Source: Bacteroidota bacterium (GTDB taxonomy: Bacteria > Bacteroidota > Bacteroidia > NS11-12g > UBA955). Taken from it: a stretch of 39,044 nt of DNA. The DNA lies in assembly GCA_009918425.1 (NCBI GenBank), contig RGEC01000002.1, forward strand, positions 1 to 39,044. Direction: 5' to 3'. A program made the position numbers and the translations under genes. Position 1 is the stretch's first letter. The number at the start of each line of letters is the position of its first letter. Positions 1 through 19,543 of the stretch are shown piece by piece. Below the pieces are notes generated by a model, which was given only the letters and a program-made list of their open reading frames with translations, was not told the origin of the DNA and did not search any database.

Positions 1-38
1 AGGCTGTAGAGACGCACAATTGTGCGTCTCTACAGCCT
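1..38. repeat. Perfect 38-bp palindrome with a GTAGAGACG/CGTCTCTAC core. It overlaps the stop codon of the 30..434 gene, so it is probably a terminator hairpin and a member of a dispersed hairpin family.
   Basis: aggctgtagagacgcaca-at-tgtgcgtctctacagcct reads the same on both strands. The same 9-bp arm core recurs at 27843..27870. The window starts at the palindrome edge, so upstream context is unseen. Confidence 0.7.
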
Positions 39-434
39 CCGACACCGTGGCGCCGCACCTTTGTTTTCCAGGATTTCGCCGTAGATGTAAAATATCTTTT
101 CGGGCCCGGTGTTGATGACAATGGCGTATTTTTCAACCGGACCTGGATGCAGGTTGCGGGTATGCAGAGCCAGCACAATGGAATCGATGGTGCCGGGTGC
201 CATGCTGTCTTTTGGGTACAGAGGCACGGTACACTGGCAGCCGGGGTGCACCTGCCGAATCATAAGTCTTTCGCTACCTTCAATGCGGAACAGGAAAACC
301 GCCTCGATGGTGTCGCCCGGGTTGCAGGTACCAAAATGGATGGTATCGCCTTGTAGCGTTTTGATATGCGATTCCTGTGCCTTAACTGTGTAGGCAAAAC
401 ACAGCAGCAACAGAAACGAAAAGGCATTTTTCAT
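30..434 (-). CDS. Secreted DUF1573-like protein (paralogue 1 of 3)
   Basis: ATG start and signal peptide MKNAFSFLLLLCFAYTVKAQ. The HPGCQCTVP motif lines up with the CGC motif of the two neighbouring paralogues. Confidence 0.7.
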   Translation of the reverse strand: MKNAFSFLLLLCFAYTVKAQESHIKTLQGDTIHFGTCNPGDTIEAVFLFRIEGSERLMIRQVHPGCQCTVPLYPKDSMAPGTIDSIVLALHTRNLHPGPVEKYAIVINTGPEKIFYIYGEILENKGAAPRCRRL

Positions 435-440
435 GGGATA

Positions 441-465
441 AGAAAAAGGCCGGATAAACCGGCCT
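441..465 (-). terminator. Rho-independent terminator after the 472..900 gene
   Basis: Stem aggccgg (447-453) and ccggcct (459-465) with loop ataaa. On the minus strand it is followed by ttttct (441-446). Confidence 0.6.
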
Positions 466-471
466 CATATT

Positions 472-900
472 TTAGTTTCCAATAATAACCGACTTGGGTT
501 TTTCGGGCTCTTTTACCACAATACCTGTAATGGTAAGGGTTACATCGCCACCATTGCTGTACACAAAAATATTTTTGGTAAAGTTGCCGGGGCGGCCCGA
601 GCTGTTGTATTCAGCCGTAACCACAGCGGAAGCGCCGGGAGCAATAGGCTCACGGGGCCACTTAGGCGAGGTACAACCACAACTGGCTTGAACGTTGCTA
701 AGCACCAGAGGGTCGGTGCCTGTATTGGTAAATTTGAAGTCGTAACGGGCGATCTGGCCTTCAATTACATTCGCGAAATTGTGGGTGATCTCTTCAAATT
801 TTACTTTGGCATTGCTTGCAGGTGCGGGAGTGGGCTGATCCTGTGCAACAGCACCGCTGAAAGCTGCGGCAAGCAATAGGGAGAAAAGGAGCTTTTTCAT
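472..900 (-). CDS. Secreted DUF1573 domain protein (paralogue 2 of 3)
   Basis: Signal peptide MKKLLFSLLLAAAFSGAVAQ and the motif QASCGCTSPKWP typical of DUF1573. Confidence 0.8.
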   Translation of the reverse strand: MKKLLFSLLLAAAFSGAVAQDQPTPAPASNAKVKFEEITHNFANVIEGQIARYDFKFTNTGTDPLVLSNVQASCGCTSPKWPREPIAPGASAVVTAEYNSSGRPGNFTKNIFVYSNGGDVTLTITGIVVKEPEKPKSVIIGN

Positions 901-922
901 AACGCTTCTATACCTTACAGAA

Positions 923-1336
923 TTACTTCAGTTGGGTTCCGCCACCATTCGGGCTTTCTGTAGAAACAGTTCCGGTGATGGTGAGGTCGGTGGTAGCTCC
1001 GTTATCGAAAGTTACCTTTACAGATTTCTGGAAGAAACCCGGACGACCTTCAGTGCCATAGCTGGCCTTTACCTCACCGGTTTTACCGGGCATCACCGGA
1101 GTTTTGGTGTAGGTGGGTGTGGTGCATCCGCAGCTGGGAGCAGCAGCGGTTATTACTACTGGTGCTTTGCCATTGTTGGTAAATGTGAACGTTACATCAG
1201 CGGGAGGACCCATTTTAACAGTGCCAAAATCGTGGGTGGTTTTATTCCACTTGATGGTTTCGTTTTGCTTAATTCCTGCTACCAGCATGGCGGTGGCAGC
1301 CATGGCAGCAAATCCGAGAGTAAAAATCTTTTTCAT
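923..1336 (-). CDS. Secreted DUF1573 domain protein (paralogue 3 of 3)
   Basis: Start moved from the ORF-track 1405 to MKKIF (ATG at 1334-1336), which gives a proper signal peptide. Motif APSCGCTTPTY. Confidence 0.8.
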   Translation of the reverse strand: MKKIFTLGFAAMAATAMLVAGIKQNETIKWNKTTHDFGTVKMGPPADVTFTFTNNGKAPVVITAAAPSCGCTTPTYTKTPVMPGKTGEVKASYGTEGRPGFFQKSVKVTFDNGATTDLTITGTVSTESPNGGGTQLK

Positions 1337-1515
1337 GGTTTTGTTATTTGGAATAGTAATATCAACAACTGTACCAAAAATTTCCGTACGGGTGAAAATA
1401 TTCAATTACTGCCTTTTTGATTCAAGTCTTTATCCTTATCCAACTTGAAAATAAAAGAGCGTAAAACTGTTTAACAAAAATGGCTAAAAGCCTTATATGT
1501 TTTGGAAATGAGAAT

Positions 1516-1534
1516 TATTGTACTTTTTACAATA
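1516..1534. promoter_or_regulatory. Candidate operator, palindrome TATTGT-N7-ACAATA (copy 1), overlapping the -7 box
   Basis: The sequence is tattgt actttt t acaata. It extends to 7-bp arms, TATTGTA-ctttt-TACAATA. The right half overlaps TATATTTG at 1533-1540. Confidence 0.6.
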
Positions 1535-1540
1535 TATTTG
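1533..1540 (+). promoter_or_regulatory. Bacteroidota-type -7 promoter element TAnnTTTG for the regulator and glycan operon
   Basis: TATATTTG lies 11 nt upstream of the ATG at 1551. Confidence 0.45.
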
Positions 1541-1550
1541 CTTCACAGAG

Positions 1551-2246
1551 ATGAAAAATCAGCATAAAATTCTGAAACAGTATTTCAATGTTGCGGTATC
1601 AGTCGACAATGTAGTGTTCGGTTTTGATGCCGACGGATTGAAGGTGCTGCTCATTTCGCGTGGCTCGGAACCTTTTACCGGTTCCTGGGCCTTGCCCGGT
1701 GATTTGATTTCACCTGAAATGGACCTGGAATACTCAGCAGAAAAGGTATTGAAACAACTTACAGGTCTGGATCAGGTGTATATGGAACAAATACAGACAT
1801 TTGGCCGTGTTGACAGGCATCCTTTTGGCCGGGTATTTACCATTGCATATTTTGCCTTGATTAAGGTTGAAAATTATCAGCCCCATGCAAATTCATGGGC
1901 CAAAGATGTGGCCTGGTTTAAGGTGTCTGAAATACCTAAACTGCCTTTTGATCACCGTGAAATTTTAGAATATGCGCGCAAGCTTCTGAAAAACCGTATC
2001 CGTACACAGCCCTTGGTATTTGAATTGTTGCCGAAGTATTTTACGCTTACGGAAGTGCAGTTTATTCATGAATCTATTCTGGAGGAAGAATTTGATGTTA
2101 GAAATTTCAGAAAAAAAATTCTTTCAACCGGTATTATTGAGGAAACAGGTAGGTTACAGAAAAACGTAACTCACCGTCCGGCAAAGCTATACCGATATAA
2201 TGCCTCTAAGGCCAAGCAGCTCGGATTTGAAGGAGGGATGTTGTAG
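1551..2246 (+). CDS. Nudix-fold, NrtR/AraR-like transcriptional regulator (degenerate Nudix box plus C-terminal winged-helix region)
   Basis: Start taken at ATG 1551 (MKNQHK) rather than TTG 1518. The Nudix-like segment GDLISPEMDLEYSAEKVLKQLTGL keeps G-x5-E but has lost the REUxEE glutamates. The C-terminal roughly 90 aa look like a DNA-binding domain. Confidence 0.65.
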   Translation: MKNQHKILKQYFNVAVSVDNVVFGFDADGLKVLLISRGSEPFTGSWALPGDLISPEMDLEYSAEKVLKQLTGLDQVYMEQIQTFGRVDRHPFGRVFTIAYFALIKVENYQPHANSWAKDVAWFKVSEIPKLPFDHREILEYARKLLKNRIRTQPLVFELLPKYFTLTEVQFIHESILEEEFDVRNFRKKILSTGIIEETGRLQKNVTHRPAKLYRYNASKAKQLGFEGGML

Positions 2247-3601
2247 TGCGCTTTCCACTATTAATATTGGCAATGCTGTTGCTGGCAGGAGCCTTGAATG
2301 CTCAGCCCGCCAAAGTTATGGTAGTCAAACAAGGCGATAATTGGCGCCTGATGAAGAATGGGTATCCATATTATATTAAGGGCGCAGGTGGTACAGTGCA
2401 CCTGGATTTATTGGTAGAATGTGGTGGAAATACAATAAGGACCTGGGGTGTGGATGATGCCCAAAAAATATTGGATGAGGCACACAGTAAGGGATTAATG
2501 GTGATGTTGGGAATGTGGGTGCAACATGAACGGCATGGCTTTGACTACGACAATAACCTGGCGGTGCAGAAACAAATAAGGTATTTCAAAAGCATTGTGG
2601 ATCAGTTTAAAAATCACCCGGCCCTGCTGATGTGGGGTATAGGCAACGAGGTGGATTTGTTTTACCAGAACACCAAAGTGTGGCACAGCATACAGGCCAT
2701 TGCCAAATATATTCATGAGACGGACCCAAATCACCCTACCTGCACCGTTACTGCTGGATTAGACTCTCTGGAAGTGCAGCATATTAAAGAAAAAGCTCCC
2801 GATATCGATATTTATGGGGTTAATACCTATGGTGACATTGCCGGGGTGCCCAAAAATATTAAAAGGTTCGGCTGGGAAGGACCTTACATGATAACCGAAT
2901 GGGGACCCAATGGACATTGGGAATCGCCGGTAACCCCATGGAATGCGGCCATTGAGCAAAGCAGTAGCGAAAAGGCCATGGTTTATGGCGAACGTTATCA
3001 GAAATACATTCAGTCCGACAGCCAGCAATGTATAGGTTCCTATGTGTTTTTATGGGGCCAAAAGCAGGAGTATACCCTTACCTGGTATGGGCTTTTTACA
3101 AAAGACAACATGGCTACAGAGGCGGTAGACAGGCTGTATCAGGTTTGGACAGGCAAGCCACCAAAAACACCAACACCCACCATTTACCGAATGCTCATTA
3201 ATAATAAGGCAGCGTCTGAAGGCATTGTGCTTGACGCAGGTTCTGTTAATGCTGTTTCCCTGCATGCCGGACTTATTCACTACACCGAGACTGCGGCTCC
3301 GGATGGTGGTTACAAGGTGGTTTGGAAAATGCTGGCTGAAAGTGATGACAAAAAAGCGGGTGGCGACATGGAAAACGAGGCAGCTGAAATAACCCATTTT
3401 ATGAAAAAAGAAGGCGCCGGAACCATGCATTTTAAGGCTCCTCGGCAACCGGGGGGCTATCGGCTTTTTGCCATGGTATATTACCAAAACAAAGTTGCCT
3501 ACAACAACATTCCGTTCAAGGTGGTAGCCGCCTCCAGTGATGACAACAAAGGGGCTGTCAAATTCAAGAAGTTTAACATGGAATCATTCAGCGAGCAATG
3601 A
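2246..3601 (+). CDS. Secreted clan GH-A (beta/alpha)8 glycoside hydrolase with a C-terminal beta-sandwich-like domain, possibly a GH158-like beta-1,3-glucanase
   Basis: GTG start overlaps the regulator stop (TAGTG). Signal peptide MRFPLLILAMLLLAGALNAQ. The motifs WGIGNEVD (acid/base) and ITEWGP (nucleophile) have clan GH-A spacing. The family assignment is not verified. Confidence 0.6.
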   Translation: MRFPLLILAMLLLAGALNAQPAKVMVVKQGDNWRLMKNGYPYYIKGAGGTVHLDLLVECGGNTIRTWGVDDAQKILDEAHSKGLMVMLGMWVQHERHGFDYDNNLAVQKQIRYFKSIVDQFKNHPALLMWGIGNEVDLFYQNTKVWHSIQAIAKYIHETDPNHPTCTVTAGLDSLEVQHIKEKAPDIDIYGVNTYGDIAGVPKNIKRFGWEGPYMITEWGPNGHWESPVTPWNAAIEQSSSEKAMVYGERYQKYIQSDSQQCIGSYVFLWGQKQEYTLTWYGLFTKDNMATEAVDRLYQVWTGKPPKTPTPTIYRMLINNKAASEGIVLDAGSVNAVSLHAGLIHYTETAAPDGGYKVVWKMLAESDDKKAGGDMENEAAEITHFMKKEGAGTMHFKAPRQPGGYRLFAMVYYQNKVAYNNIPFKVVAASSDDNKGAVKFKKFNMESFSEQ

Positions 3602-5451
3602 GGGTAAACTTGTTTAAAATATTCATTCTACTGCCATTGTTGACCATTGTTGGCAAGGGGTTTTCCCAGGATACCGCTAAGCTGGCCAACACGCCGGGCA
3701 TTTTCCCAAAATCCCCCGCTGCTACTTTACAGCGCTTTCAGGTATCCGGTTATTACCGATTCATCACCAATGTACGTCATCTGCAGGAAGGCTACACAGA
3801 CCAGATGAAAACACCCTTCAATATTTTTGTGGGTGATGATAGCCAGATTCCACAACTGCTGCTGAACCTGGGTGGCAGTGTGGCGCCCAACACCCGGTTT
3901 TATACCGATTTTTATCTATGGAGTCCCATGATGGGAGGAGGAATGGTCGAAAATGTGAAAGGGCTTAACTTGGGGGTAAGCCTGACCGGAACCCACGACT
4001 TTGAGCACGGAACCCTGCAAGTTCAGACCGGGGGCATAAACTGGTACGCTCTCACGCCTTTTACTTTCCACTCTAATCCCGGTTTCAACCGATTTACTGT
4101 TTTTGAACGCAACCCCTGGGATCCCATGACCCGAAATGCCATAGACCGCTATCAGACCTTTTACCAAACCGGCGCCATGAATCAGGATACACGTTGGGGA
4201 AGGCAGGCATTTCAGGGTATAATACTGGATGCAAGCAATCTGCCAAACGGATTTTCAGGTACCATGATGTTTGGCAAAACACAGCTAAACGGGGGTATGT
4301 CTCCATTACCCAACCAAAGTGTTGGAGGAAAAATAAGAAACGGCAACGAAAATCGTTATATCAGCTTTAATACATTCAATAATCAGACCTGGTCCGACTC
4401 ATTGCTCAGCAGCCGAATGGGCTTTTCTATTCACACCATGGAGTTTACTTGGAAGAAAAACGGCTGGAAAATGTATGGTGAGACCGGCTTAGGAAAATAT
4501 TACAGTAAAGTTTACAATAAGGGCTGGGGAGAAGCTGTTTCCCTGAAATTGGATATCCCAAATAGAATTTTGTCTCTGCCCGTGCAGATACATTATTTCA
4601 GAATCAGCCCGAAAGTTATCAATAACAGCAGTGTTTTCTGGAACTCGTCCATTCTGGAAGGCAACAACACAGGTGCCGGAAGCGAAGCTCAGCTTGTACT
4701 TGCACCGTTTTCAAGCTCTATGGTTCCAGTAGGCCAGCTAACAAATAACCGCACAGGGGTAGAATTAAACACTGAAACATCGATAGGCCCTTTAAAAGTT
4801 AATGCTGGCTACACAGTGGCCAAAGAGCTGGAACGTATAGCCACCCAGATTACGTATGCCCATCCGGTCAACAATTTGGCTGTATCCAGGTTCTGGCGGT
4901 GGGCATTCCCTTCAGGTGTGGGCCCCTATGCCAATCTCACCAAAGTGTATCGTGGGGTTTTTGAATCGGTAGATATATTGGATGTTGATGCGCAGGATAA
5001 ACCCATGAAAGACAAATATTTCAATACGGCCGAATTGCAGATGAAATACAAAACGCGTTTTCTGGGCAGAGACCTCTTTGTTAATTACCTGGGAAACTAT
5101 GCTTCGGTGCAGCATTTTATGGCTCCTTTCACCGTGCTAACCGAAAAAGCCTACCTCAGAACCTATTATCACCAGTTGGAGGCCTACCTGAGACTCTCGC
5201 AGAATCTGGTATGGTGTAATTATGCCGGGGCTGAGCGTGTGGTAGCCAATTACGATACCCGAACGGATGCCATTAGCCGCAGGCCTAAGAATCAGGAAGG
5301 GTATGCCATTGCCACCGGTTTTGACATTGAAATGAGCAAAGGTGCCGGTTTATACATAAGACAGCGTAAAATGCAGTACCGAGATCGCAGTTATAGCAAG
5401 GATCGTTACAAGGGCTGGGAAACTACCGTTGAACTTAAAATATTCTTTTGA
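3598..5451 (+). CDS. Predicted plug-less outer-membrane beta-barrel protein, uncharacterised family (OMP-A)
   Basis: ATGA overlap with the upstream gene and a signal peptide ending GFSQ. The sequence is rich in alternating aromatic/polar and Gly-containing stretches. It ends in ELKIFF (terminal Phe). No TonB box or plug-like segment is visible. Confidence 0.55.
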   Translation: MRVNLFKIFILLPLLTIVGKGFSQDTAKLANTPGIFPKSPAATLQRFQVSGYYRFITNVRHLQEGYTDQMKTPFNIFVGDDSQIPQLLLNLGGSVAPNTRFYTDFYLWSPMMGGGMVENVKGLNLGVSLTGTHDFEHGTLQVQTGGINWYALTPFTFHSNPGFNRFTVFERNPWDPMTRNAIDRYQTFYQTGAMNQDTRWGRQAFQGIILDASNLPNGFSGTMMFGKTQLNGGMSPLPNQSVGGKIRNGNENRYISFNTFNNQTWSDSLLSSRMGFSIHTMEFTWKKNGWKMYGETGLGKYYSKVYNKGWGEAVSLKLDIPNRILSLPVQIHYFRISPKVINNSSVFWNSSILEGNNTGAGSEAQLVLAPFSSSMVPVGQLTNNRTGVELNTETSIGPLKVNAGYTVAKELERIATQITYAHPVNNLAVSRFWRWAFPSGVGPYANLTKVYRGVFESVDILDVDAQDKPMKDKYFNTAELQMKYKTRFLGRDLFVNYLGNYASVQHFMAPFTVLTEKAYLRTYYHQLEAYLRLSQNLVWCNYAGAERVVANYDTRTDAISRRPKNQEGYAIATGFDIEMSKGAGLYIRQRKMQYRDRSYSKDRYKGWETTVELKIFF

Positions 5452-7178
5452 TGAAATATAGCATGATACATATTGCAAAAAATATAATAGTGTTACTGTT
5501 CGGAATACCCGGACTGATAATTGCTCAAAGCACCCCAAAATTTTCTGTAACAGGCGGTGCACGTTCTCTTTTATCCAACGCTGAAATTTCGGTTAAAGAC
5601 AGTGTTCCGGATAATGTAACTGCCAGAAAAAATGCCGGTGGATACGCTTTGATGGATTTGGGTTTCAATATCAGGCCCAACCAGAACACCGAAATTATGG
5701 GTATGATCCGCATAAACAATAGGTTTGGTGGATTCTGGGGTGCAGGGGTATCCTTTGATGTAAGACAATTGTGGCTAAAGGGTATCATTGCCGATCGGGT
5801 TCGTTATCAGCTGGGAGATATCAACCTGAAGCAAACCCCATTTACTTTCTGGAACCACGATGAGGATAACCGCATTCAGTTGCCCGCGGTATTTGGCTTG
5901 CAAAGAGATATTGTAAATTATGAGACATTTTATGTTCCCAATACCTGGAGGCAGCAGGGGGCAGCCATGAATTTTGGGCTGGAATCGGGTAAAATGAAGT
6001 CTGAATGGAATTTTCATTCCTACCTCAATCGTTTGAATGCCACCAATTTTGGAAGTCAGCCGGAAAGACTGCATTTTGGAAGCACCGCAAACTGGATTTT
6101 TCATAAAAATCTGACAGTGGCCTATAACCTAAGCCGTGTTTTTGATGTAAAAGAAACCGCACTTAGCAATATTCGCTTTCAAAACACTGTGAATACTGCC
6201 TCTTGGGAATATAATCAATTGTTGAAAGGCCGGCTGATAACCCTGGGCGGAGAGGCGGGTAATTCTTCTTACCGCTGGTTGCAGGATACTGCTGCGCCAC
6301 ACCTCCAGGATTATTTTGTGCATGCTTTTCTTCGCATAGGCAATAAAGAAAAACACTGGTCTGTAGAAGGAGGTTACCTAAATGTGGGACCGGATTTCAG
6401 AAGTGTTGCTGCGCAGTCAAAAAGACTGGATGTGGGTGCGCAGCCTATGTTTTATAATAGGTACACCCAATTGCAGCTCGATAGACCCTTGAATCTGCTG
6501 GATTACACAACCAACACAGCATTGTTTAGAAACGGCATCAGTACCAAGCTACAGGCGTACAATCCCATACTCAACAATGTGATGCCCTATGGTATGGCTA
6601 CATTTAACCGATCGGGATTGTATATGAAATCCAAATGGCAACATACCAAAAAAATTGTGACCGCAGAAGTACAATATTACAAACTGTCTGAAATATTGGG
6701 GCAGGGTACCTCGGAACTAAAAAAATTCAGAATGACACAGGCCCATTTGAACTGGGATATAGGTAAAATGTTAGGCTATAAAAAGCAATGGAAACTTCAG
6801 GTATCTGCCTGCCAGCAGCAGACCCTCCGCAACAGCACAAGGAATTATGAAGTTGTAAAATTAAATTCGATGCAGTTGGGTGCCGGGATGGAATCCGAAA
6901 TCATGAGCAGCATTGACATCTTGGCGGGGTATACCATGTTACAGGGTAAGGGCAATGAAATGCTTGCCGCAAGAAATGGCTACACAGAAGTAATCGACTT
7001 CACGGGATACAACGCAAACCTGCAAAACAATGCTGCTGCTGCCGGACTCAGGGTTCGATTCAGCAACAAAACCTACCTTTCTCTGCTGTATCAGCGTATG
7101 AATTACCGCAACCTATTACAGCCCTATCAGAATTATACAATCGGTCAGTTTCAGGCCATATACAACATGACTTTTTAA
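5448..7178 (+). CDS. Predicted plug-less outer-membrane beta-barrel protein, distant paralogue of OMP-A (OMP-B)
   Basis: ATGA overlap with OMP-A and a signal peptide ending IIAQS. It ends in IYNMTF. It shares the motif (L/Q)TPFTF with OMP-A (nt about 4054-4068 and 5835-5849). Confidence 0.55.
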   Translation: MMKYSMIHIAKNIIVLLFGIPGLIIAQSTPKFSVTGGARSLLSNAEISVKDSVPDNVTARKNAGGYALMDLGFNIRPNQNTEIMGMIRINNRFGGFWGAGVSFDVRQLWLKGIIADRVRYQLGDINLKQTPFTFWNHDEDNRIQLPAVFGLQRDIVNYETFYVPNTWRQQGAAMNFGLESGKMKSEWNFHSYLNRLNATNFGSQPERLHFGSTANWIFHKNLTVAYNLSRVFDVKETALSNIRFQNTVNTASWEYNQLLKGRLITLGGEAGNSSYRWLQDTAAPHLQDYFVHAFLRIGNKEKHWSVEGGYLNVGPDFRSVAAQSKRLDVGAQPMFYNRYTQLQLDRPLNLLDYTTNTALFRNGISTKLQAYNPILNNVMPYGMATFNRSGLYMKSKWQHTKKIVTAEVQYYKLSEILGQGTSELKKFRMTQAHLNWDIGKMLGYKKQWKLQVSACQQQTLRNSTRNYEVVKLNSMQLGAGMESEIMSSIDILAGYTMLQGKGNEMLAARNGYTEVIDFTGYNANLQNNAAAAGLRVRFSNKTYLSLLYQRMNYRNLLQPYQNYTIGQFQAIYNMTF

Positions 7179-7181
7179 AAT

Positions 7182-8180
7182 ATGAAATCAATACTCAGTA
7201 TATTCATCGGCATTGTTTTGTTTACATCTTGTAAGCGAGACAATAACCAGTTCGAAGGCCCCAGCCTGCAGGATCTTAACGGCCCGTTTGGCATGGTAAA
7301 ACCATTTACTGCCAGCAAAACAGCAGTGGATTTTTCCAAAGGGGAAATTGTAACCTTTGCAGCCGAGTTTACCAAGCAGTGCAACTGGACCATAACCATC
7401 TATGGAGATCTGAGCAAGGCACGTAAAATCATTACCGGTAAATCCCGGCAGATAGATGCCGTAAATGGAATCTGGAATGGCACAACTACTGTGCTTCCTG
7501 CTTTCAGAACAGAGCCTTGCCGCGCTGTACTTAAAATTGATGGAGTAACAGATAGTTTCACCTTGAATATCGGTATCAATGGGTTACGAATACCCCAGGG
7601 ATTGATGATTGCAGACTTTGAAGCCGGACTTAGTCCTAAATGGAACACATTCATACAATCGGGGGCCAATATGGATTTTAAGGTGAAAAGTGATGCCTTT
7701 TCGGTGAAGGGAAATTACCTGAATATGGCAGGCACCGTGACGTGGGACTGGCTTATCGGCCTGATAGATTTTCCGGCATCGGCATATGGAGCAAATACGT
7801 TTACAGTAAGCAATATTCCTGAAGATGTGTATTTCAATTGTCTTATTTATGGCGATCCCAATGTAGCAAATCCCAGCAGGGTTCTGTTTCAGTTTAAGGA
7901 AGATGATAACAGCAACAATGTTTTTGATGTTGCAGCGGATGATCAGTTTGACAAAGAAATTATTGTGAATTGGCAGGGATGGAAACTCGTATCCTTTAAA
8001 TACAGCGATTTGATTCACCTGGTGAATGGGCAGCCCGCTCCTAACAATGGCAATAATCGACATAACCCCAATCGTGTGGTGACCATTTCTATGCTGCACC
8101 TAGCGAATCCGTCCATGGGTGCCGGGAGCACAAAAATCGATTACCTTATTTTTACTGAGAAAACGCCCCTGGAACTGTAA
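7182..8180 (+). CDS. Lipoprotein with an Ig-like N-terminal part and a CBM-like C-terminal domain (putative surface glycan-binding protein)
   Basis: Lipobox VLFTSC. The C-terminal segment runs from IADFEAGLSPKWNTF to STKIDYLIF, which is typical of jelly-roll CBM or CIA30-like modules. Confidence 0.5.
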   Translation: MKSILSIFIGIVLFTSCKRDNNQFEGPSLQDLNGPFGMVKPFTASKTAVDFSKGEIVTFAAEFTKQCNWTITIYGDLSKARKIITGKSRQIDAVNGIWNGTTTVLPAFRTEPCRAVLKIDGVTDSFTLNIGINGLRIPQGLMIADFEAGLSPKWNTFIQSGANMDFKVKSDAFSVKGNYLNMAGTVTWDWLIGLIDFPASAYGANTFTVSNIPEDVYFNCLIYGDPNVANPSRVLFQFKEDDNSNNVFDVAADDQFDKEIIVNWQGWKLVSFKYSDLIHLVNGQPAPNNGNNRHNPNRVVTISMLHLANPSMGAGSTKIDYLIFTEKTPLEL

Positions 8181-8866
8181 TGAAATATCCTTTTTTAATG
8201 GGGATCTTGCTGTGTGCTGCAGCTTCGGCTTCAGGCCAGAATACAGCTGTAGATAACATGGATACGGTTCAGATTACCGGAAACAAGTTGCGGTTTAAAA
8301 AACAGCAGTTATATGATGAGTCAAACGGTTCGGTACCCGCTCAAATCGGCGGGTTTAGTGCATTGGGTGTTTTTGATGAATCAATGGGTTCTGAAGTATG
8401 GTTTTCCAAAGAAAAGGCATGCGTATCGGTAAGTAAATCTGACCGTCTTCCCTATACAGGTCAATTTTGTCTGCACGCCCAATGGGATAAAATTGCAGGT
8501 GGCTGCAAGTGGATTGGGATGGGCATTGGCTGGGACAACTGGCAACCCAAGGATATTTCTTCGATCGTGGATTCAGCTGCCATACAAATAATGTTGCGTT
8601 CTGAAACCGACACCCTGAAAACCCTGCCGCTCGCTCTGGCCTTGGAAGATTACACAGGAGCCCAGTGTTTTATCGGCTTTTCACCCCGTTATCTGATGGG
8701 CAATAAAATCATGCCCGGGGGCTGGACCGCGGCCATTATACCGCTGTCTGAGTTTCCGTTTGAAAGGTTTAATGCCAGTGCTGCCATGATCAAACAGTTT
8801 ATCATACAGTTTGAGGCAGACGGCAATGTATATATGGATGATATTCGTTTAATCCGAAAAAAGTAG
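8180..8866 (+). CDS. Secreted CBM-like (jelly-roll) protein
   Basis: TAATG overlap with the upstream gene and a signal peptide. It has a Trp-rich core (WIGMGIGWDNWQP) and a C-terminal FEADGNVYMDDIRLI, typical of CBM11/CIA30-like domains. Confidence 0.45.
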   Translation: MKYPFLMGILLCAAASASGQNTAVDNMDTVQITGNKLRFKKQQLYDESNGSVPAQIGGFSALGVFDESMGSEVWFSKEKACVSVSKSDRLPYTGQFCLHAQWDKIAGGCKWIGMGIGWDNWQPKDISSIVDSAAIQIMLRSETDTLKTLPLALALEDYTGAQCFIGFSPRYLMGNKIMPGGWTAAIIPLSEFPFERFNASAAMIKQFIIQFEADGNVYMDDIRLIRKK

Positions 8867-8870
8867 GTCA

Positions 8871-11120
8871 ATGAAAAACCCTCTAAGTATAGGTTTAACC
8901 TGTTTTCTTATTGTATTTAATACAATAAATGCGCAAACACCCATAGAAAAGAAGGCAGATTCCCTGCTTTCAGTCATGAATATTGAAGCAAAAATCGGTC
9001 AGATGTCTCAAATCGACCTGGGTGTACTGTGCAAAGGAAAAATTTGTGAATTGCAGGATCCCCTTGCACTTGACACGGCCAAATTGCGACTGGCATTCAG
9101 CAAATACAAGGTGGGCTCTGTGTTAAACTGCGGTTGCGGTTTTCATGCCCTTGCGCGTGAGCGCTGGATCAGTATTATTGACAGCATACAGCAGGCAAAC
9201 CGCCTGTTTGCGGGCCATGATATACCCGTGCTGTATGGTATAGATGCGATTCATGGTGCCAACTATACCATCGGGGCTACCTTGTTTCCTCAGCAGATAG
9301 GACAGGCAGCCACATGGAATCCGGATCTGGTGAAGGCTGCTGCAAAGATTACGGCTTACGAAACGCGTGCTTCGGGCATCCCCTGGAATTTTTCACCGGT
9401 GCTGGATTTGGCCCGACAGCCGCTCTGGTCGAGGTTTTTTGAAACCTATGGGGAAGACGTTTATCTGGCAACCCGCATGACAACAGCCTGTATCGAAGGA
9501 TACCAGGGAGAAAAAATAGGAGAATTGCAGGTAGCTGCCTGTATGAAACATTTTTTGGGCTATAGCTATCCGCTGAGTGGTAAAGATAGAACCCCCGCCT
9601 GGATTGGTGACCGCGAACTTAGGGCATACTTTCTGCCCACCTTTCAGGAGGCCATTCGCCTAAAGGCCAAGACAGTGATGATCAATTCCGGTGAAATTAA
9701 TGGTACGCCCGTTCACGCAAACCCCAAAATTTTAACAGGGCTGCTTCGCGATGAGCTGGGTTTTGACGGGGTGGCCGTCACGGACTGGGAAGACATTTAT
9801 AAACTGCATACCCTGCACCGTGTGGCCCCTTCATTGCGCGATGCTGTTAAAATGGCGGTTATGGCCGGTATAGACATGAGCATGACCCCTAATGATTTTC
9901 AGTTTAATGAACTGTTGCTGAATCTGGTAAAATCGGGGGAAGTGCCAGAAAGTCGAATCGATGTTTCTGTGAAAAGAATTCTGAAACTCAAGCTGGAGCT
10001 GGGCATTGAAAAATGGGACGCCGATTATGTCCGTAACTATTATCCGATTTTTGCATCGCCTGATTTTGCGTCGGTAGCAACGGCAACTGTTTCAGAATCT
10101 CTGACCCTGCTGAAAAATGAACTCCGTAATACCACTTCAGATGAGGCGGTGTTGCCATTAAAACAGCAGGACAAGGTTCTGGTTTTTGGGAATGCTGCCA
10201 ACAGCATAAAAATGCTGAACGGGGCCTGGTCACAAACCTGGCTGGGTCAGGATGAAAGGTATGTAGATTCAACCAAACCTACCATTTTATCGGCATTAAA
10301 ATTTTTGGCAACAGATAAAATTATTTTTGCCAATGCAGCTGATCCGAAATCGTGCAGGCGTGCACTCAAAAGTAAGCCAAGTGTGGCGATTTTGTGTCTG
10401 GGCGAAACCCCTGCCACAGAAATTCCCGGAAACATCAATCAACTTGAATTGCCTGTAGATGAAAACACGCGAAATCTGGCAAAGCAGCTAAAGGCCATGA
10501 ATGTGCCTGTGGTATTGGTTTTGTGCCTTGGTCGTCCCCGCATCATTACCGAGTGGGCTGAAGCCGCATCCGCCGTCTTGCACACCTACCTTCCAGGCCA
10601 CGAAGCAGCGCCGGTCATTGCGTCTGTTTTGTATGGGAATATCAATCCTTCCGGAAAATTGCCGTTTACCTACCCCCGATACTGCGGTGATATTGTACAT
10701 TATGACCATAAGCGTACCGAAGACAATGATGTGAATTTTGGGGATAAAGGCTACAATCCTTTGTATGATTTTGGTTTCGGCCTGTCTTATACCCGCTTTC
10801 AATATTCAGATCTGCAAGTGAAGGCAGCGAAAGACACTTTTTTCATTAGTGTTATGGTGAAAAATACAGGAAGTAGGGCCGGGAAGGAAGTTGTGCAGGT
10901 GTATTACCGCGATGAATATGCAGCCGTGACACCTTCCGTAAAGAAACTTTGCGGGTTTATGAAAATATATGCAACAGCAGGCGAAACAAAAAGGGTACGG
11001 TTCGCTATACCTGCAATGCAACTTGGAGATATCGGTGCCGATTTGAAGCCCTTTAGGGCAGAAGGGGAATTGAAGTTTTTTATCGGAACGGAAACAAAAC
11101 AAATACAATACAATCCATGA
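8871..11120 (+). CDS. Glycoside hydrolase family 3 beta-glucosidase
   Basis: Signal peptide plus the motifs KHFLGYS and GFDGVAVTDWEDI (GH3 nucleophile region). The length of 749 aa includes a C-terminal FnIII-like domain. Confidence 0.9.
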   Translation: MKNPLSIGLTCFLIVFNTINAQTPIEKKADSLLSVMNIEAKIGQMSQIDLGVLCKGKICELQDPLALDTAKLRLAFSKYKVGSVLNCGCGFHALARERWISIIDSIQQANRLFAGHDIPVLYGIDAIHGANYTIGATLFPQQIGQAATWNPDLVKAAAKITAYETRASGIPWNFSPVLDLARQPLWSRFFETYGEDVYLATRMTTACIEGYQGEKIGELQVAACMKHFLGYSYPLSGKDRTPAWIGDRELRAYFLPTFQEAIRLKAKTVMINSGEINGTPVHANPKILTGLLRDELGFDGVAVTDWEDIYKLHTLHRVAPSLRDAVKMAVMAGIDMSMTPNDFQFNELLLNLVKSGEVPESRIDVSVKRILKLKLELGIEKWDADYVRNYYPIFASPDFASVATATVSESLTLLKNELRNTTSDEAVLPLKQQDKVLVFGNAANSIKMLNGAWSQTWLGQDERYVDSTKPTILSALKFLATDKIIFANAADPKSCRRALKSKPSVAILCLGETPATEIPGNINQLELPVDENTRNLAKQLKAMNVPVVLVLCLGRPRIITEWAEAASAVLHTYLPGHEAAPVIASVLYGNINPSGKLPFTYPRYCGDIVHYDHKRTEDNDVNFGDKGYNPLYDFGFGLSYTRFQYSDLQVKAAKDTFFISVMVKNTGSRAGKEVVQVYYRDEYAAVTPSVKKLCGFMKIYATAGETKRVRFAIPAMQLGDIGADLKPFRAEGELKFFIGTETKQIQYNP
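8909..8927. promoter_or_regulatory. Candidate operator, palindrome TATTGT-N7-ACAATA (copy 2), inside the signal-peptide codons of the GH3 gene
   Basis: The sequence is tattgt atttaat acaata. It extends to TATTGTA-tttaa-TACAATA. Confidence 0.45.
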
Positions 11121-11968
11121 GCATGTTCAAGTCAACATCAATAATTACCACAGCAGGATTGCTGTTATTGGGATTAATTACAACCTGTAAGCAATCAGAT
11201 CCACCAACTACCCGCAACCGAATAATACGTGATTCCGGCGATTTTGTGTTTTCGGGATATGGGTGGAATATTAAGTCAAGTATTACACCGGTAGGGCCCG
11301 GGCCTAACTACTTTAATGGAAGTGACAGTATGGTCTGGGTGGATAAGGATGGGCTATTGCATTTGCGTATTGCTTATATCAACGGGAAATGGCAAAGCAG
11401 TGAAGTGATTTGCACGGAAAATATGGGCTATGGAACCTATGTGTTTTGCCTTGAAAGCAATGTGGCGAATATCAATGAACGGATAGTACTGGGTTTGTTT
11501 ACCTGGGATGACAATTCTTTCAAAGAGCAGGCCAACAGTGAAGTGGATATTGAATTCTCAAAGTGGTTTAAGGCCAGTGACAGCCTGACATTGACTTATT
11601 CTGTTCAGCCGGTAATATTCGATAATCCTATAGCTTACAGTGAGCGTTCCTTCAAACCCCAGATGCAGGTGGCTAAGCTAAAGCAACCCAGTACACATGT
11701 ATTTAACTGGCAGGCCGACGAAATAACCTGGAATTCATACACAGGTGCTGTTTATCCGGGTGGCAATCCCATTGCTTCTTGGAATTTTAACCTGAATAAC
11801 CCTGTAAGAACCAAAATAGAAGGTGGACGTGTATCAAATCCCATTATTATACCTGCGCCCGGCGCCACTACCCGCGCCAGAATGAATCTGTGGTTATTGA
11901 ATGGATTACCCCCATCAGATGGTAAACCATTCGAGGTAGTTGTTCGCTCGTTTGAATACATTCCGTAA
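11117..11968 (+). CDS. GH16-like beta-glucanase lipoprotein
   Basis: ATGA overlap with GH3 and lipobox LITTC. The motif SEVDIEFS matches the GH16 catalytic E-x-D-x-E. Its size of about 280 aa fits a single jelly-roll domain. Confidence 0.55.
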   Translation: MSMFKSTSIITTAGLLLLGLITTCKQSDPPTTRNRIIRDSGDFVFSGYGWNIKSSITPVGPGPNYFNGSDSMVWVDKDGLLHLRIAYINGKWQSSEVICTENMGYGTYVFCLESNVANINERIVLGLFTWDDNSFKEQANSEVDIEFSKWFKASDSLTLTYSVQPVIFDNPIAYSERSFKPQMQVAKLKQPSTHVFNWQADEITWNSYTGAVYPGGNPIASWNFNLNNPVRTKIEGGRVSNPIIIPAPGATTRARMNLWLLNGLPPSDGKPFEVVVRSFEYIP

Positions 11969-11976
11969 ACAAAAAA

Positions 11977-11993
11977 GGAGGCACATGGCCTCC
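11977..11993. terminator. Bidirectional terminator hairpin between convergent genes
   Basis: Stem ggaggc and gcctcc with loop acatg, flanked by an A-run upstream and ctcttt downstream. Confidence 0.55.
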
Positions 11994-12021: not shown

Positions 12022-13686
12022 TTACTTGTTGAGAATGATCTGTTCGCGGTAGGTTTGTTCACCTGCAGTGATTACCAGCATATAAACACCGGCTTTTAAT
12101 GCGCCCATGTCTATGGTTGTATTCACAGCATTGCCGGTGAAGGCTGATCCGTAAACTTTTTGGCCAAGAATGTCGCTAATGCTTATGTTTCCGGATACGC
12201 CTGAATTGAACACTGCAGATACGCTGATATTTGACTGAGCAGGATTGGGATATACACTGATTCCATGAGTGCTCAATGGTGTATTGCCCATGCTTTGGCA
12301 GGTTCCGCAATATTCCCAGCAAAAAGCGGGCAGGGTTGTATCGGCCTTTGCAGTAAGCAATCGATTGGTGAAGCTGCCGGTAGTTTTGGTGCAGCTTTCG
12401 CCACCTTTGAAAGTTTCTTTCACTGCCCATCCGTCAAGTGTAAATAAATATTCAAAAGTATCAAGTGCATTCAAGGGAAGACTGATTTCGTATATTTTAT
12501 CATTGTCGGCGTCTGTCATGGGATTGCAGGTGCCGCACCAGCCATTGAATGAACCGTTTAGGTTTACTGCAGTGAAAGTGTTTTTATAGGAACTCATATC
12601 TACTTTGAAAGTCACATTGGCTTTAGGCTTGGTGTTGGCGCAACTTTCGCATGATTCAAAACAAACTGCATTCAAAACAGTAGCACCGTTGATTTTGAGG
12701 AAACGATTGGTGTAAATACCGGTAGTTTTTGTACAGGAAGATCCGGATTTCATTTTTTCTGCCACATTCCAGCCGTCCAGGGTAAATAGGTATTCGATAG
12801 AATCCTGAGGTAGGGGCAGTTTCACTTCCCAAACACCATTTTTGTCTGCATCATCCATAGGGTTACAGTTACCGCACCATCCGTTGAAAGAGCCATTTAC
12901 GTATACAGTGGTAAAGGATCCACCTGTGTATTTGCTCATATCTACCTTGAAGGTTACATCGTTGGTACACTCGCTGCAACTACCCCAGCATACATTAGGA
13001 AGAACCTTGGAGCCGGTAACTTTCAGGAAGCGATTGGTGTAGCCCCCTGTGGTTTTGGTGCAGGTGCTGCCGGAAGTTAGTTTTTCATCACCTGCCCAGT
13101 TGTCAATAGAGAATTTGTATTCTATCGAGTCGCGGGTAATGTCGAAAGTACCCGAATAAATTTTATCGCCATCTGCATCGGTAAGCTGATTGCTGTTGCC
13201 GGACCAACCATTAAAATCACCGCTAACATACACATTGGTGTATGAACCTGAATACTGTTTCATGTTAACATTAAAAGTGATTGATTTTTTGGTAACCGAA
13301 GAACAAGCTGCACAGCTTTCAAAACAGACCTTAGCCAGTGTCACATCACCGGTCAGTTTTACAAAACGGTTGGTATAACCGCTTGTGGTTTTGGTGCATG
13401 ATGATCCTTGAGTAAGGTTTTCCTGCTTGCTCCAGTTATCCATGGTAAATTTATACTCAATGGAGTCATCGGTAATGTTGATTGTGCCTTCCCAAACACC
13501 ATCTGCATCAGCATCACTAAGCGCATTGGAATTGCCGGACCAGCTGTTGAAATTGCCACTCACGTAAACGGTAGTAAAGGAACCACCGGTAAACTGATTC
13601 ATGTCTACCTTAAAGGTTACTTTCTTTTGAGCCATCAAGCCGCCCAATGAAGCGACCATGAGCATCAGAGTAAATATTTTTTTCAT
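12022..13686 (-). CDS. T9SS-secreted protein with four tandem roughly 110-aa carbohydrate-binding-like (CBM20/48 or E-set-like) Cys-containing modules
   Basis: Start moved to MKKIFTL (ATG at 13684-13686). There are four repeats of VTFKVDM..VYVSGNFNGW..DADGD..EYKF..D.W..SCTKTT..YTNRF..C.ESC..C. The C-terminus, ISVYPNPAQSNISVS...GVYMLVI...IILNK, resembles a T9SS sorting domain. Confidence 0.8.
   Translation of the reverse strand: MKKIFTLMLMVASLGGLMAQKKVTFKVDMNQFTGGSFTTVYVSGNFNSWSGNSNALSDADADGVWEGTINITDDSIEYKFTMDNWSKQENLTQGSSCTKTTSGYTNRFVKLTGDVTLAKVCFESCAACSSVTKKSITFNVNMKQYSGSYTNVYVSGDFNGWSGNSNQLTDADGDKIYSGTFDITRDSIEYKFSIDNWAGDEKLTSGSTCTKTTGGYTNRFLKVTGSKVLPNVCWGSCSECTNDVTFKVDMSKYTGGSFTTVYVNGSFNGWCGNCNPMDDADKNGVWEVKLPLPQDSIEYLFTLDGWNVAEKMKSGSSCTKTTGIYTNRFLKINGATVLNAVCFESCESCANTKPKANVTFKVDMSSYKNTFTAVNLNGSFNGWCGTCNPMTDADNDKIYEISLPLNALDTFEYLFTLDGWAVKETFKGGESCTKTTGSFTNRLLTAKADTTLPAFCWEYCGTCQSMGNTPLSTHGISVYPNPAQSNISVSAVFNSGVSGNISISDILGQKVYGSAFTGNAVNTTIDMGALKAGVYMLVITAGEQTYREQIILNK
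12291..13626 (-). repeat. Four tandem coding repeats of about 330 bp inside the T9SS protein gene
   Basis: Repeat boundaries were read from the translation and are approximate. Confidence 0.7.
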
Positions 13687-13710
13687 TTTCAAAAGATAAT
13701 TAGTTAACAA

Positions 13711-13718
13711 CAAAGATA
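13711..13718 (-). promoter_or_regulatory. -7 promoter element (TATCTTTG on the minus strand) for the T9SS repeat-protein gene
   Basis: The plus strand reads CAAAGATA, about 25 nt upstream of the ATG at 13686. Confidence 0.4.
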
Positions 13719-13918: not shown

Positions 13919-14821
13919 TTAGCGTTTTAATACAAATGATCTGAAGTCTGCCGTGTACGACCCAACCACCCCAAACGCTCCTGGCACATTTCCCATTATT
14001 TTACCCGGAAGCTGACTAATGCTCTGTTGTTGCCAGATGTGGGCATTGCGGGTGTTGTAGAAATTGAACAGGGATTTGCTGATATTTTCCAGGTGAAATT
14101 CAATACTTACAGGCCTTTCAGCAGGGGTTTTCAGCAGCGGGTCTGAAGTATATAAAACCATATATTTATTAACCCCGTTGAAGGTAGCATCAGAGAAAAG
14201 CAATTCTCTTGAACTGTAATTGTTGTAATCATTGTCTGTTGCAGCCAGGTCATCCGAATAGAGGGAAATAATATCTTTTTGCAGGAAGCTGTCCGATAAC
14301 TTACCCGTATAATCATATATATACCTGTAGGCTGTTTTATAGAGGTAGCAGCGATAATAGTTTTCAAAAGCGGCATCATCATCAAACCTCACGGCTACTG
14401 AAAAAGCGCGGCCTATGCCGGGTATAAGTTGTCGTATTGTATCAAAATTTTTAATAAAAACTTGCTTGGGTATAATTTCTGATATATCAAATTTGTAGCC
14501 GTTCACATAGCCCCTGAAAACAAAGGTGTCGCCTGATTTCAGGGAGTTGGAACCAAACAGGTGAATACCGTTTCCGGTATATATGGTGGTATCTTTGGTT
14601 GTATTTGATTTTATTATTGAGAAAAATGCATTGCCTATGGGCATGTCTTTGCTGCCAAAGGGCGCGGTAAGCCTGCAGTCTGCAGTTAAAATACTGTCTG
14701 GGGTAATGAAGCAATGCACTGCAGGTAATGGCGTTTTCAGGTAATCAGAATTGTACGGAATTTCTTTTATGCATCCGCATAAAATCAACACGCTTGCAGT
14801 ATAAAATACGAGGATTCTCAA
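13919..14821 (-). CDS. DUF4249-like lipoprotein, partner of the upstream TonB-dependent receptor
   Basis: Lipobox LILCGC and a 4-nt overlap with the receptor gene. This is the typical receptor/DUF4249 pairing in Bacteroidota. Confidence 0.6.
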   Translation of the reverse strand: MRILVFYTASVLILCGCIKEIPYNSDYLKTPLPAVHCFITPDSILTADCRLTAPFGSKDMPIGNAFFSIIKSNTTKDTTIYTGNGIHLFGSNSLKSGDTFVFRGYVNGYKFDISEIIPKQVFIKNFDTIRQLIPGIGRAFSVAVRFDDDAAFENYYRCYLYKTAYRYIYDYTGKLSDSFLQKDIISLYSDDLAATDNDYNNYSSRELLFSDATFNGVNKYMVLYTSDPLLKTPAERPVSIEFHLENISKSLFNFYNTRNAHIWQQQSISQLPGKIMGNVPGAFGVVGSYTADFRSFVLKR

Positions 14822-18821: not shown

Positions 18822-19543
18822 CTAAAGTTGCTGAGTTAGCTTTCCGTTTTCAAAAGTACATTCAGCACCCATGATTAAACAAGCATTTTTTGGCGTATGC
18901 CCTGCAGGAAAATTGAAAATGAGAGGAATATCATATCACAACATGTGTTGACGGATAATTTCCTCCGCCGTTTGTCCAAACGGGACAGCGTTGTCTTTCA
19001 TGTCTGTCATTCCACCAACAATAAGTCCCCGGAGTTTTTTAAGCATTCCGGATCTTTTCAGTGCCATCATCATTCGGTCTATGTGATACAGATATTCATC
19101 CAGATCTTCCAAAAACAAAACGGCGTTTTCGGTATCGGGTTGTTCAGGGGTTCCCAATGAGGCGAAAACAAGGCTCAGATTTCCTCCCAGTAATTTTCCT
19201 TTAAAATGTAAATTATTTCCTGTATTTGTATTGGAATCAGTTACTTCAACTTTTAATTTAAATATTGCCTCTTCTACACACGCAACATTTTCATGGGTGT
19301 ATTTATGTTGTATGCCCCAATGTATGGCCATAGGCCCATGCAGGGTAGGAATACCGAGTTTATTGAAGTGTAGGTGCAGGGTGGTAATATCGCTAAAGCC
19401 CACCAGCCATTACAGCAATCGGAGTCATGGTTTTGTTCTTTGCACCAGTTTGTAAATGCCGACATTTCCTCCCTGCTCACAGCTCTGGCAGGGGCAATGA
19501 GGGCAATTTGATCTCCGGGTTTTAGCGGGGTCAGGCTTCCCAA
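18822..19543 (-). pseudogene. ldcA: LD-carboxypeptidase (peptidase S66) pseudogene with an internal deletion plus frameshift and an in-frame TGA
   Basis: The N-terminal fragment LKPGDQIALIAPARAVSREE (19433-19543) is joined out of frame to GFSDITTLH (Ser-nucleophile motif, 19403 downward), with about 70 aa missing. A TGA at 18936-18938 interrupts ..IIRQHML*YDIPLIFNFPAGHTP.., which contains the catalytic His motif. The natural stop is at 18822. Confidence 0.75.

Follow-up and report, generated by a model that had tools for sequence, protein, structure and literature searches.

Two putative paralogous outer-membrane barrels in a predicted SusC/SusD-free beta-1,3-glucan operon of Bacteroidota, related to a cellulose-utilization system of Cytophaga hutchinsonii

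Contig RGEC01000002.1 of a Bacteroidota bacterium (assembly GCA_009918425.1), analyzed over positions 1 to 39,044 and referred to here as the window, raises the question of what two adjacent genes for large outer-membrane proteins are doing in a row of genes for glycan-degrading enzymes. The original prediction for these genes, made from the letters of the DNA, held that they encode a pair of paralogous, plug-less outer-membrane barrels of unknown family, and that the two may form a porin-like channel for oligosaccharides. The analysis described here suggests that the two proteins, A and B, are probably the outer-membrane barrels of a glycan-utilization module that is free of SusC/SusD and that imports beta-gluco-oligosaccharides.

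Both open reading frames (ORFs) were found at the positions originally given for them. Barrel A, a predicted outer-membrane beta-barrel of the CHU_1276 family, occupies 3598-5451 on the plus strand and has 617 aa ending in ELKIFF. Barrel B, predicted to be of the CHU_1277 family, runs from its best start, the ATG at 5451, to 7178 on the same strand and has 575 aa ending in IYNMTF. As read off the translations, each protein begins with a hydrophobic signal peptide followed by Gln (..GFS/QDT in A and ..IIA/QST in B), and each ends in the C-terminal Phe that had been pointed out for both. The same residue closes (YKITF) the TonB-dependent receptor encoded at 14818-17454, for which the expected CarboxypepD_reg and Plug domains were indeed matched in Pfam. 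One detail needed correction, in that the ATGA overlap ascribed to the A/B junction lies one junction upstream, where a gene of glycoside hydrolase family 158 (GH158) meets A (3598-3601). The A/B junction itself reads TGATG, a 1-nt overlap of stop and start, or TTGA if B is started from the TTG at 5448.

Do A and B actually fold as barrels? Monomer models were built with AlphaFold2 from 32-sequence alignments, and both were all-beta, with about 24-25 strands in A (predicted local distance difference test, pLDDT, 70.8; predicted template-modeling score, pTM, 0.70) and about 21-22 strands in B (pLDDT 69.4; pTM 0.63). Foldseek searches of the PDB with the two models returned outer-membrane barrels only, including porins, TonB-dependent transporter (TBDT) barrels, MtrB, and LptD. 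The claim of large outer-membrane barrels, at about 22-24 strands, is thus upheld by models and structural matches alike, and AlphaFold2 gave no sign of a non-barrel fold. The best template-modeling (TM) score for either protein was about 0.42, to 22-strand TBDT barrels, and Foldseek found no close structural relative of A or B in the PDB at this ceiling. Chitoporin and maltoporin were also among the matches, at TM scores of 0.27-0.34 relative to the query. Nothing pointed confidently to kinship with LptD, BamA, Wzi, or AlgE, the Foldseek matches being generic, with TM scores no higher than about 0.4.

Sequence searches were similarly sparse. In Pfam and NCBIfam, at E values up to 10, A and B matched nothing but a weak, generic OMP_b-brl entry in B, which recurs in 12 of 32 B-family members (best E 2.9e-5). 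A weak Porin_4 match, below its curated cut-off, occurred in one of 32 B-family members, and no porin family of Pfam matched A or B themselves. Profile searches of PDB sequences with A and B yielded nothing meaningful and no TBDT. The label "unknown family" therefore stands with respect to Pfam, NCBIfam, and PDB sequence assignments, but not with respect to the literature, where the CHU_1276/CHU_1277 family to which the pair belongs has been published.

Whether the barrels are truly plug-less is a finer question. Their strands start about 20-40 residues past the signal peptide, no N-terminal plug domain precedes the first strand in either AlphaFold2 model, and Pfam gave no Plug or TonB_dep_Rec match to A or B up to E 10. 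The accompanying claim that neither protein has a TonB box, plug motif, or STN/CarboxypepD segment agrees with the lack of any corresponding Pfam match and with inspection of the short mature N-termini by eye, without a formal test, in which no TonB-box-like strand was recognized. Both proteins nevertheless carry long, conserved non-strand insertions, at residues 148-204, 337-384, and 422-454 of A and at residues 122-169 and 313-386 of B. Positions conserved at 80% or more are about twice as dense in these insertions as outside them (21% versus 10% in A; 26-38% versus 16% in B). In the modeled barrels, the insertions may partly fill the lumen, so that "plug-less" is true of the domain architecture while the lumen itself might be occupied.

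The proposed kinship of A and B was not evident from simple comparisons, since pairwise BLASTP was not significant (E 0.22) and neither were hmmsearch and hhalign comparisons of profiles built from close relatives (E 0.009-0.046), global alignment being of no help. The relationship became detectable because divergent family members were added. With diverse family alignments of 134 A and 44 B sequences (number of effective sequences, Neff, 5.8), hhalign aligned A 1-605 with B 8-563 over 496 columns at a probability of 97.9% and an E value of 4e-13, compared with a score of about 31 and an E value of about 0.01 for reversed-sequence controls. The two motif pairs originally cited as a trace of duplication, GGINWYALTPFTF / GDINLKQTPFTF and RWGRQAFQG / WRQQGA, fall in register in the A/B profile alignment, as does a third pair, MVPVGQLTNNRTG / VMPYGMATFNRSG. 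Identity in this alignment is about 16%, and A is longer than B by an insertion of about 53 residues (420-472). These profile similarities show that A and B are ancient paralogues born of an old duplication, as had been supposed.

What kind of operon do the barrels belong to? Eight same-strand genes lie at 1518-11968, where neighbors are separated or overlap by no more than 4 nt, and the glycan operon that had been proposed is confirmed by the GH158, GH3, and GH16-like enzymes identified in it. The GH158 endo-beta-1,3-glucanase (2246-3601, plus strand, as are all genes of the row) was recognized in a search of PDB sequences (9oro, labeled "GH158", E 4.6e-95; 6pal, E 9.3e-66), and it is probably periplasmic because it carries a type I signal peptide (..ALNA/QPAK). 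The GH3 exo-beta-glucosidase (8871-11120) matched Pfam Glyco_hydro_3 (E 4e-68), GH3_C, and an Fn3-like domain, and it too has a type I signal peptide, which predicts a periplasmic location; its best NCBIfam match was an exo-beta-1,3/1,6-glucosidase (E 8e-115), although this match falls short of the curated cut-off. The last gene (11117-11968) encodes a 283-aa GH16-like lipoprotein, in which the N-terminus is conserved as C-(K/E)-Q-S-D-P-P and the ExDxE motif (E142, D144, and E146) is invariant. Its profile matches the Bacillus GH16 lichenases marginally (E of about 1e-3), and there is a weak NCBIfam BglS match.

Between B and GH3 are two further genes. The first (7182-8180) encodes a lipoprotein of 332 aa with an invariant Cys17, assigned by sequence to the CHU_1278 family and third in the A-B-lipoprotein core, which is probably a surface glycan-binding or lid protein. 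The second (8180-8866) encodes a secreted protein of 228 aa in the position of CHU_1279, which possibly comprises a single domain resembling a carbohydrate-binding module (CBM), and whose homologues in many species are lipoproteins by their N-termini. Neither protein matched anything in Pfam (E up to 10), NCBIfam, or the PDB, profile searches included. In one related locus (L022:8926-11913) an in-frame fusion joins a homologue of the 228-aa protein and GH3 in a 996-aa product, which suggests that the 228-aa protein works beside GH3 or as its binding module. No SusC/SusD pair was found in the operon, the downstream lipoproteins had no SusD-family match in Pfam, and no GH9 was found in the window. 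On gene content, the operon is best described as a SusC/SusD-free operon for catabolism of beta-1,3-glucan of the laminarin type.

The row begins with a Nudix-type (NrtR/AraR-like) regulator (1518-2246; Pfam NrtR_WHD, E 6e-24, AraR_C, and NUDIX). As this gene is present in just 32 of 80 related loci, it is clade-specific and outside the module core. A GC-rich hairpin directly follows the last gene (11977-11993, plus strand); the number of hairpins in the region is not above shuffled expectation, and the position of this one fits a terminator, possibly one shared with the convergent gene beyond it. A scan for sigma-70 promoters is uninformative for Bacteroidota.

Is this arrangement peculiar to one genome? 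A one-genome-per-species scan matched 208 genomes, and 80 loci were compared, nearly all of them from lake and river bins. The order GH158-A-B-lipoprotein-228-aa protein-(GH3)-GH16-like was kept, colinear, in nearly all 80, with median intergenic gaps of -11 to +2 nt. A was present in all 80 loci, B in 78, and GH158, directly upstream of A, in 77, followed by the lipoprotein (68), the 228-aa protein (62), GH3 (51), and the GH16-like protein (52); missing genes were largely at contig ends. A and B always co-occur and are adjacent (median gap of 2 nt in 67 loci), and the 332-aa lipoprotein follows B in every locus that is long enough, including the GH9-type loci described below. Clustering at 90% identity gave more than 400 clusters of A homologues and more than 480 of B homologues, nearly all from Bacteroidota metagenome bins and all annotated as "hypothetical".

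The nearest relatives with known phenotypes came to light in the more distant parts of the family. When an exhaustive profile search was clustered at 50% identity, the A family came to 318 clusters, with divergence down to about 23% identity, and a C-terminus of the ..E(L/F)K..F type is conserved in nearly all full-length members. A metagenome scan for a divergent branch, with a query alignment of 5 sequences, gave 15 loci that keep the order A-like, B-like, lipoprotein-like. Their full-length B-like genes match the B-family hidden Markov model (HMM) at E values of 1e-98 to 1e-130, and beyond these genes come a lipoprotein of 375-450 aa and then a GH9+CelD_N cellulase in place of GH158. One sequence in the branch is identical to a protein of C. 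hutchinsonii ATCC 33406. The corresponding locus (L096) encodes, in order, proteins of 743, 606, 380, and 375 aa and then GH9, which a cluster look-up identified as CHU_1276, CHU_1277, CHU_1278, CHU_1279, and Cel9C/CHU_1280; the locus tags were confirmed via ABG58548.1, ABG58549.1, and ABG58550.1. The A-family HMM matched CHU_1276 (the ABG58548.1 cluster) at E 2e-79 (BLASTP, 27% identity over 639 columns, E 1e-55), the B-family HMM matched CHU_1277 at E 2e-117 (29% identity, E 2e-66), and the HMM of the 332-aa lipoprotein matched CHU_1278 at E 3e-34 (26% identity, E 1e-12). These matches indicate that A, B, and the 332-aa lipoprotein are the same core as CHU_1276 and CHU_1277 together with CHU_1278.

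Earlier work with C. hutchinsonii gives this core a physiological setting. The genes chu_1276-1280 are co-oriented and induced by cellulose, have been termed an atypical polysaccharide utilization locus (PUL), and were found in only two further cellulolytic relatives (PMC12016534). CHU_1276 and CHU_1277 reside in the outer membrane and are required or important when cellulose is used, and mutants lose growth on cellulose and keep growth on glucose, with the chu_1276 mutant showing a growth defect at low glucose (PMC12016534). [quoted passage not shown] Judging by the titles of papers cited in that source, CHU_1276 has been connected with glucose uptake, CHU_1277 with degradation of cellulose and cello-oligosaccharides, and CHU_1280 with the periplasm (PMC12016534).

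Several further observations concern the extended family. NCBI now gives the Cytophaga proteins the names [quoted passage not shown], UniRef labels CHU_1277 a "TonB-dependent receptor" despite the absence of a plug, and no HMM in NCBIfam release 20 matches CHU_1276, CHU_1277, or CHU_1279. Homologues of the window's own proteins are all still annotated as "hypothetical". Accessory binding proteins vary in copy and domain number across GH9-type loci: one locus (L088) has a single-domain, 236-aa version of the two-domain CHU_1279 (hhalign probability 99.4%), and a second CHU_1278-like lipoprotein copy also occurs (L087:18360-19607, L088:15879-16928, and L088:15000-15710 being variant accessory genes). 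Some A-family barrels of about 790-840 aa (P0276, P0290, and P0294, and also P0339) have an N-terminal CBM_4_9 domain, which lies between signal peptide and barrel and was matched in Pfam at E values of 3e-16 to 1e-8 in three members. Where this domain sits and what it does are puzzling, because a domain at the N-terminus of such a barrel would usually be expected on the periplasmic side or inside the lumen. No relation was found between this CBM4/9 domain and the families of the 332-aa and 228-aa proteins.

How, then, might the module operate? The core consists of barrel A, barrel B, and the CHU_1278-family lipoprotein, usually followed by a small CBM-like protein, and the window appears from its sequence to hold the beta-1,3-glucan version of the SusCD-independent system of C. 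hutchinsonii. The surface lipoproteins, possibly with the GH16-like lipoprotein, would capture and nick a laminarin-type glucan at the cell surface, where they are predicted to be exposed. The A/B barrels would then pass fairly long gluco-oligosaccharides over the outer membrane without a plug domain or TonB box, their conserved aromatic/polar internal loops conceivably acting as constriction and specificity filter. The degradation would be completed in the periplasm by the endo-acting GH158 and the exo-acting GH3, both of which have ordinary signal peptides. A role in import is the most economical one for A and B because they are outer-membrane barrels and the loci encode no other candidate for a passage. 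It is also favored by the endo-enzymes with ordinary signal peptides (GH158 here and GH9 in Cytophaga), which need an oligomeric substrate, and by the homologue mutants that lose growth on polymer, and the CBM_4_9 domain of some A-family members gives a further tie to carbohydrate. What we infer is transport itself, its direction, the union of A and B in one complex, and independence from TonB.

Certain points weigh against this reading. AlphaFold2 performs poorly (pLDDT below 50) exactly in the conserved insertions on which pore size and lumen occupancy depend, and overall confidence in the models of A and B is moderate. The heteromeric A/B channel is a conjecture for which co-occurrence is the basis, and the accessible literature yielded no transport assay for any A/B family member. 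The title connecting CHU_1276 with glucose uptake, as cited in PMC12016534, may mean a narrower pore than the one proposed. The operon has no inner-membrane sugar transporter. Finally, the 228-aa protein aligned only weakly with the CHU_1279 domain (hhalign probability 12-36%, E 2e-3 to 4e-4), and the better-scoring alignment spans C-terminal strands only, so that homology between the two is not established.

An obvious alternative is that A and B work separately, for example as a pore for mono- and disaccharides and a pore for oligosaccharides, or with one of them docking surface proteins, in which case their co-occurrence would reflect a shared pathway. Divergence this old, at some 16% identity, would suit separate duties, as would the insertion of about 53 residues and the probably different strand number. 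The titles cited in PMC12016534 also give the two homologues different phenotypes, glucose uptake for CHU_1276 and degradation of cellulose and cello-oligosaccharides for CHU_1277. On the other hand, A and B are strictly adjacent and in fixed order in more than 90 loci serving two types of substrate, and the finding that each C. hutchinsonii gene is individually needed fits an obligate partnership equally well. Separate functions are therefore a possibility to be kept in mind, if a doubtful one. As for the porin-like pair for oligosaccharides that was first envisaged, uptake is still the best reading of fold, operon, adjacency, and the cellulose phenotype of the Cytophaga homologues, while the heteromeric channel goes no further than what co-occurrence suggests.

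In the outer membrane, LptD holds LptE, and MtrB sheathes MtrA. By analogy, A and B could be, instead of sugar channels, anchors or devices for assembly or export that place or hold the glycan-binding lipoproteins and enzymes at the surface, and the lipoprotein gene always 3' of B would agree with this, as would the Foldseek matches to LptD and MtrB with TM scores similar to those of TBDT barrels. Such a role seems unlikely, given that the ordinary signal peptides of GH158 and GH9 imply that oligomers cross the outer membrane, that the loci encode no other import route, and that the low-glucose defect of the chu_1276 mutant points to permeation (PMC12016534). It has also to be asked whether A and B are cryptic energy-dependent transporters in which the internal loops serve as a plug driven by TonB or another inner-membrane motor. 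The top Foldseek scores (TM up to 0.42, to 22-strand TBDT barrels) lean in this direction, as do the UniRef label on CHU_1277 and the TBDT matches obtained with the predicted structure of CHU_1276 (PMC12016534). This is quite improbable, however, in view of the searches described above, in which Pfam gave no Plug or TonB_dep_Rec match up to E 10, the models had no domain before the first strand, the mature N-termini showed no TonB-box-like strand by eye, and profile searches of PDB sequences brought up no TBDT. Hardly credible at all is a function in polysaccharide export or envelope biogenesis, as in barrels of the Wzi, AlgE, BcsC, LptD, or BamA type. Wzi, AlgE, BcsC, and LptD do occur among the generic Foldseek matches, but with low TM scores (0.2-0.3) that are no better than those of porins or TBDTs, and neither Pfam nor PDB-sequence profiles revealed sequence similarity to these families. 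Moreover, the neighborhood has no glycosyltransferase or synthase genes, hydrolases and binding proteins make up the conserved partners, and the homologue mutants grow on glucose with a defect only when it is low and lose growth on cellulose (PMC12016534).

Taking import of beta-gluco-oligosaccharides as the preferred reading, a broader and decidedly tentative idea is that the core represents a second general outer-membrane glycan importer of Bacteroidota, one that runs alongside SusCD and needs no TonB. Long beta-glucan chains would enter through a wide heteromeric translocon gated by loops, with swappable enzymes (GH9 for cellulose; GH158, GH3, and GH16-like for laminarin), and net inward movement could be driven by periplasmic binding and hydrolysis. 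The idea was prompted by the endo-glucanases with ordinary signal peptides and by the CBM4/9 N-termini of some family members.

The rest of the window contributes observations of a different kind. Convergent to the operon, on the minus strand at 12022-13713, is a gene for a secreted protein that has repeats of a CBM48/AMPK-type glycogen-binding module, a C-terminal sorting domain for type IX secretion, and no match to a catalytic domain; its position and orientation are kept in closer relatives, at 54-77% identity. No tRNA gene was found. The TonB-dependent receptor mentioned above is followed by a DUF4249 protein with a stop/start overlap (13919-17454, minus strand), and this pair falls outside the glucan module because it occurs in just 4 of the 80 related loci. 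Three consecutive genes for DUF1573 Ig-like domain proteins of 133-159 aa (30-1405, minus strand) are common to 7 of the 80. At 18936-19403 (minus strand), an ORF matches the C-terminal Peptidase_S66C domain of LD-carboxypeptidase and the last 20 or so positions of its N-terminal domain; the gene may be truncated or frameshifted, or may start upstream of the listed ORF.

The wider significance of the locus derives from C. hutchinsonii. How this bacterium takes up cellulose with no use of free cellulases, cellulosomes, or SusCD has been puzzling for a long time, and the chu_1276-1280 cluster is, to our knowledge, the only genetic handle on it. That cluster was reported in three cellulolytic species (PMC12016534, 2025). 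The barrel-barrel-lipoprotein core is in fact widespread, with a GH158-type locus in at least 208 species-representative genomes, and modular with respect to substrate. Transport would be far easier to study by experiment in a version that acts on a soluble glucan, laminarin for instance, than with crystalline cellulose. Likewise, PUL predictors keyed on SusC/SusD pairs would miss a common route of beta-glucan uptake in freshwater Bacteroidota, which affects estimates of who consumes algal storage glucans in lakes and rivers. Both the protein families and the notion of an atypical PUL have been published before, and the mechanism of that known system is unsolved. In the literature searched, no report was found of the core with a different enzyme set and substrate, of its breadth across uncultured freshwater Bacteroidota, or of the A/B paralogy.

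How does the window compare with systems already described? The closest is chu_1276-chu_1280 itself, which likewise has the order barrel, barrel, lipoprotein, an endo-glucanase with an ordinary signal peptide, and no SusC/SusD pair; in both systems a small beta-rich protein takes the position of CHU_1279. In contrast, identity to the window proteins is only 26-29%, and the enzymes here are GH158, GH3, and GH16-like, for beta-1,3-glucan, rather than the GH9 of Cytophaga, for beta-1,4-glucan. Because GH9 and cellulose do not figure here, the window system is a variant and not the same system. Further differences include the fourth gene after GH158, which here encodes a single-domain, 228-aa protein whose homology to CHU_1279, with its two domains, is unproven, and the absence from A of the N-terminal extension of about 120 residues seen in CHU_1276. 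The regulator is of the Nudix type and within the operon here, and a sigma factor of the ECF (extracytoplasmic function) type in C. hutchinsonii, while the hosts are uncultured, mostly freshwater Bacteroidota on the one side and soil cellulolytic Cytophagales on the other.

The laminarin PUL of Bacteroides uniformis contains the founding GH158. Such SusC/SusD-type beta-1,3-glucan PULs are likewise co-regulated loci in which one or more barrels and surface glycan-binding lipoproteins are combined with GH158, GH3, and GH16-type enzymes, and the substrate class is probably the same as that of the window. Unlike them, the window system has no plug domain, TonB box, or SusD-like protein; instead it has two paralogous barrels of an unrelated sequence family, and its GH158 carries a type I signal peptide and not a lipoprotein signal. 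A third point of comparison is offered by the sugar porins, namely the LamB/ScrY maltoporin family and the chitoporin ChiP, which are likewise plug-less barrels encoded in sugar-catabolic operons and have internal loops rich in aromatic residues. These porins are smaller, with 16-18 strands and 350-420 aa as opposed to about 22-24 strands and 600 aa in A and B, and they share no sequence similarity with the pair and little structural similarity (TM scores of 0.27-0.34, as given above). The wider set of classical and sugar-specific porins (OmpF, LamB, OprB, and ChiP), with 16-18 strands and 300-450 aa, does not accommodate A and B either. The window differs from them, finally, in having two different barrels together with dedicated lipoproteins.

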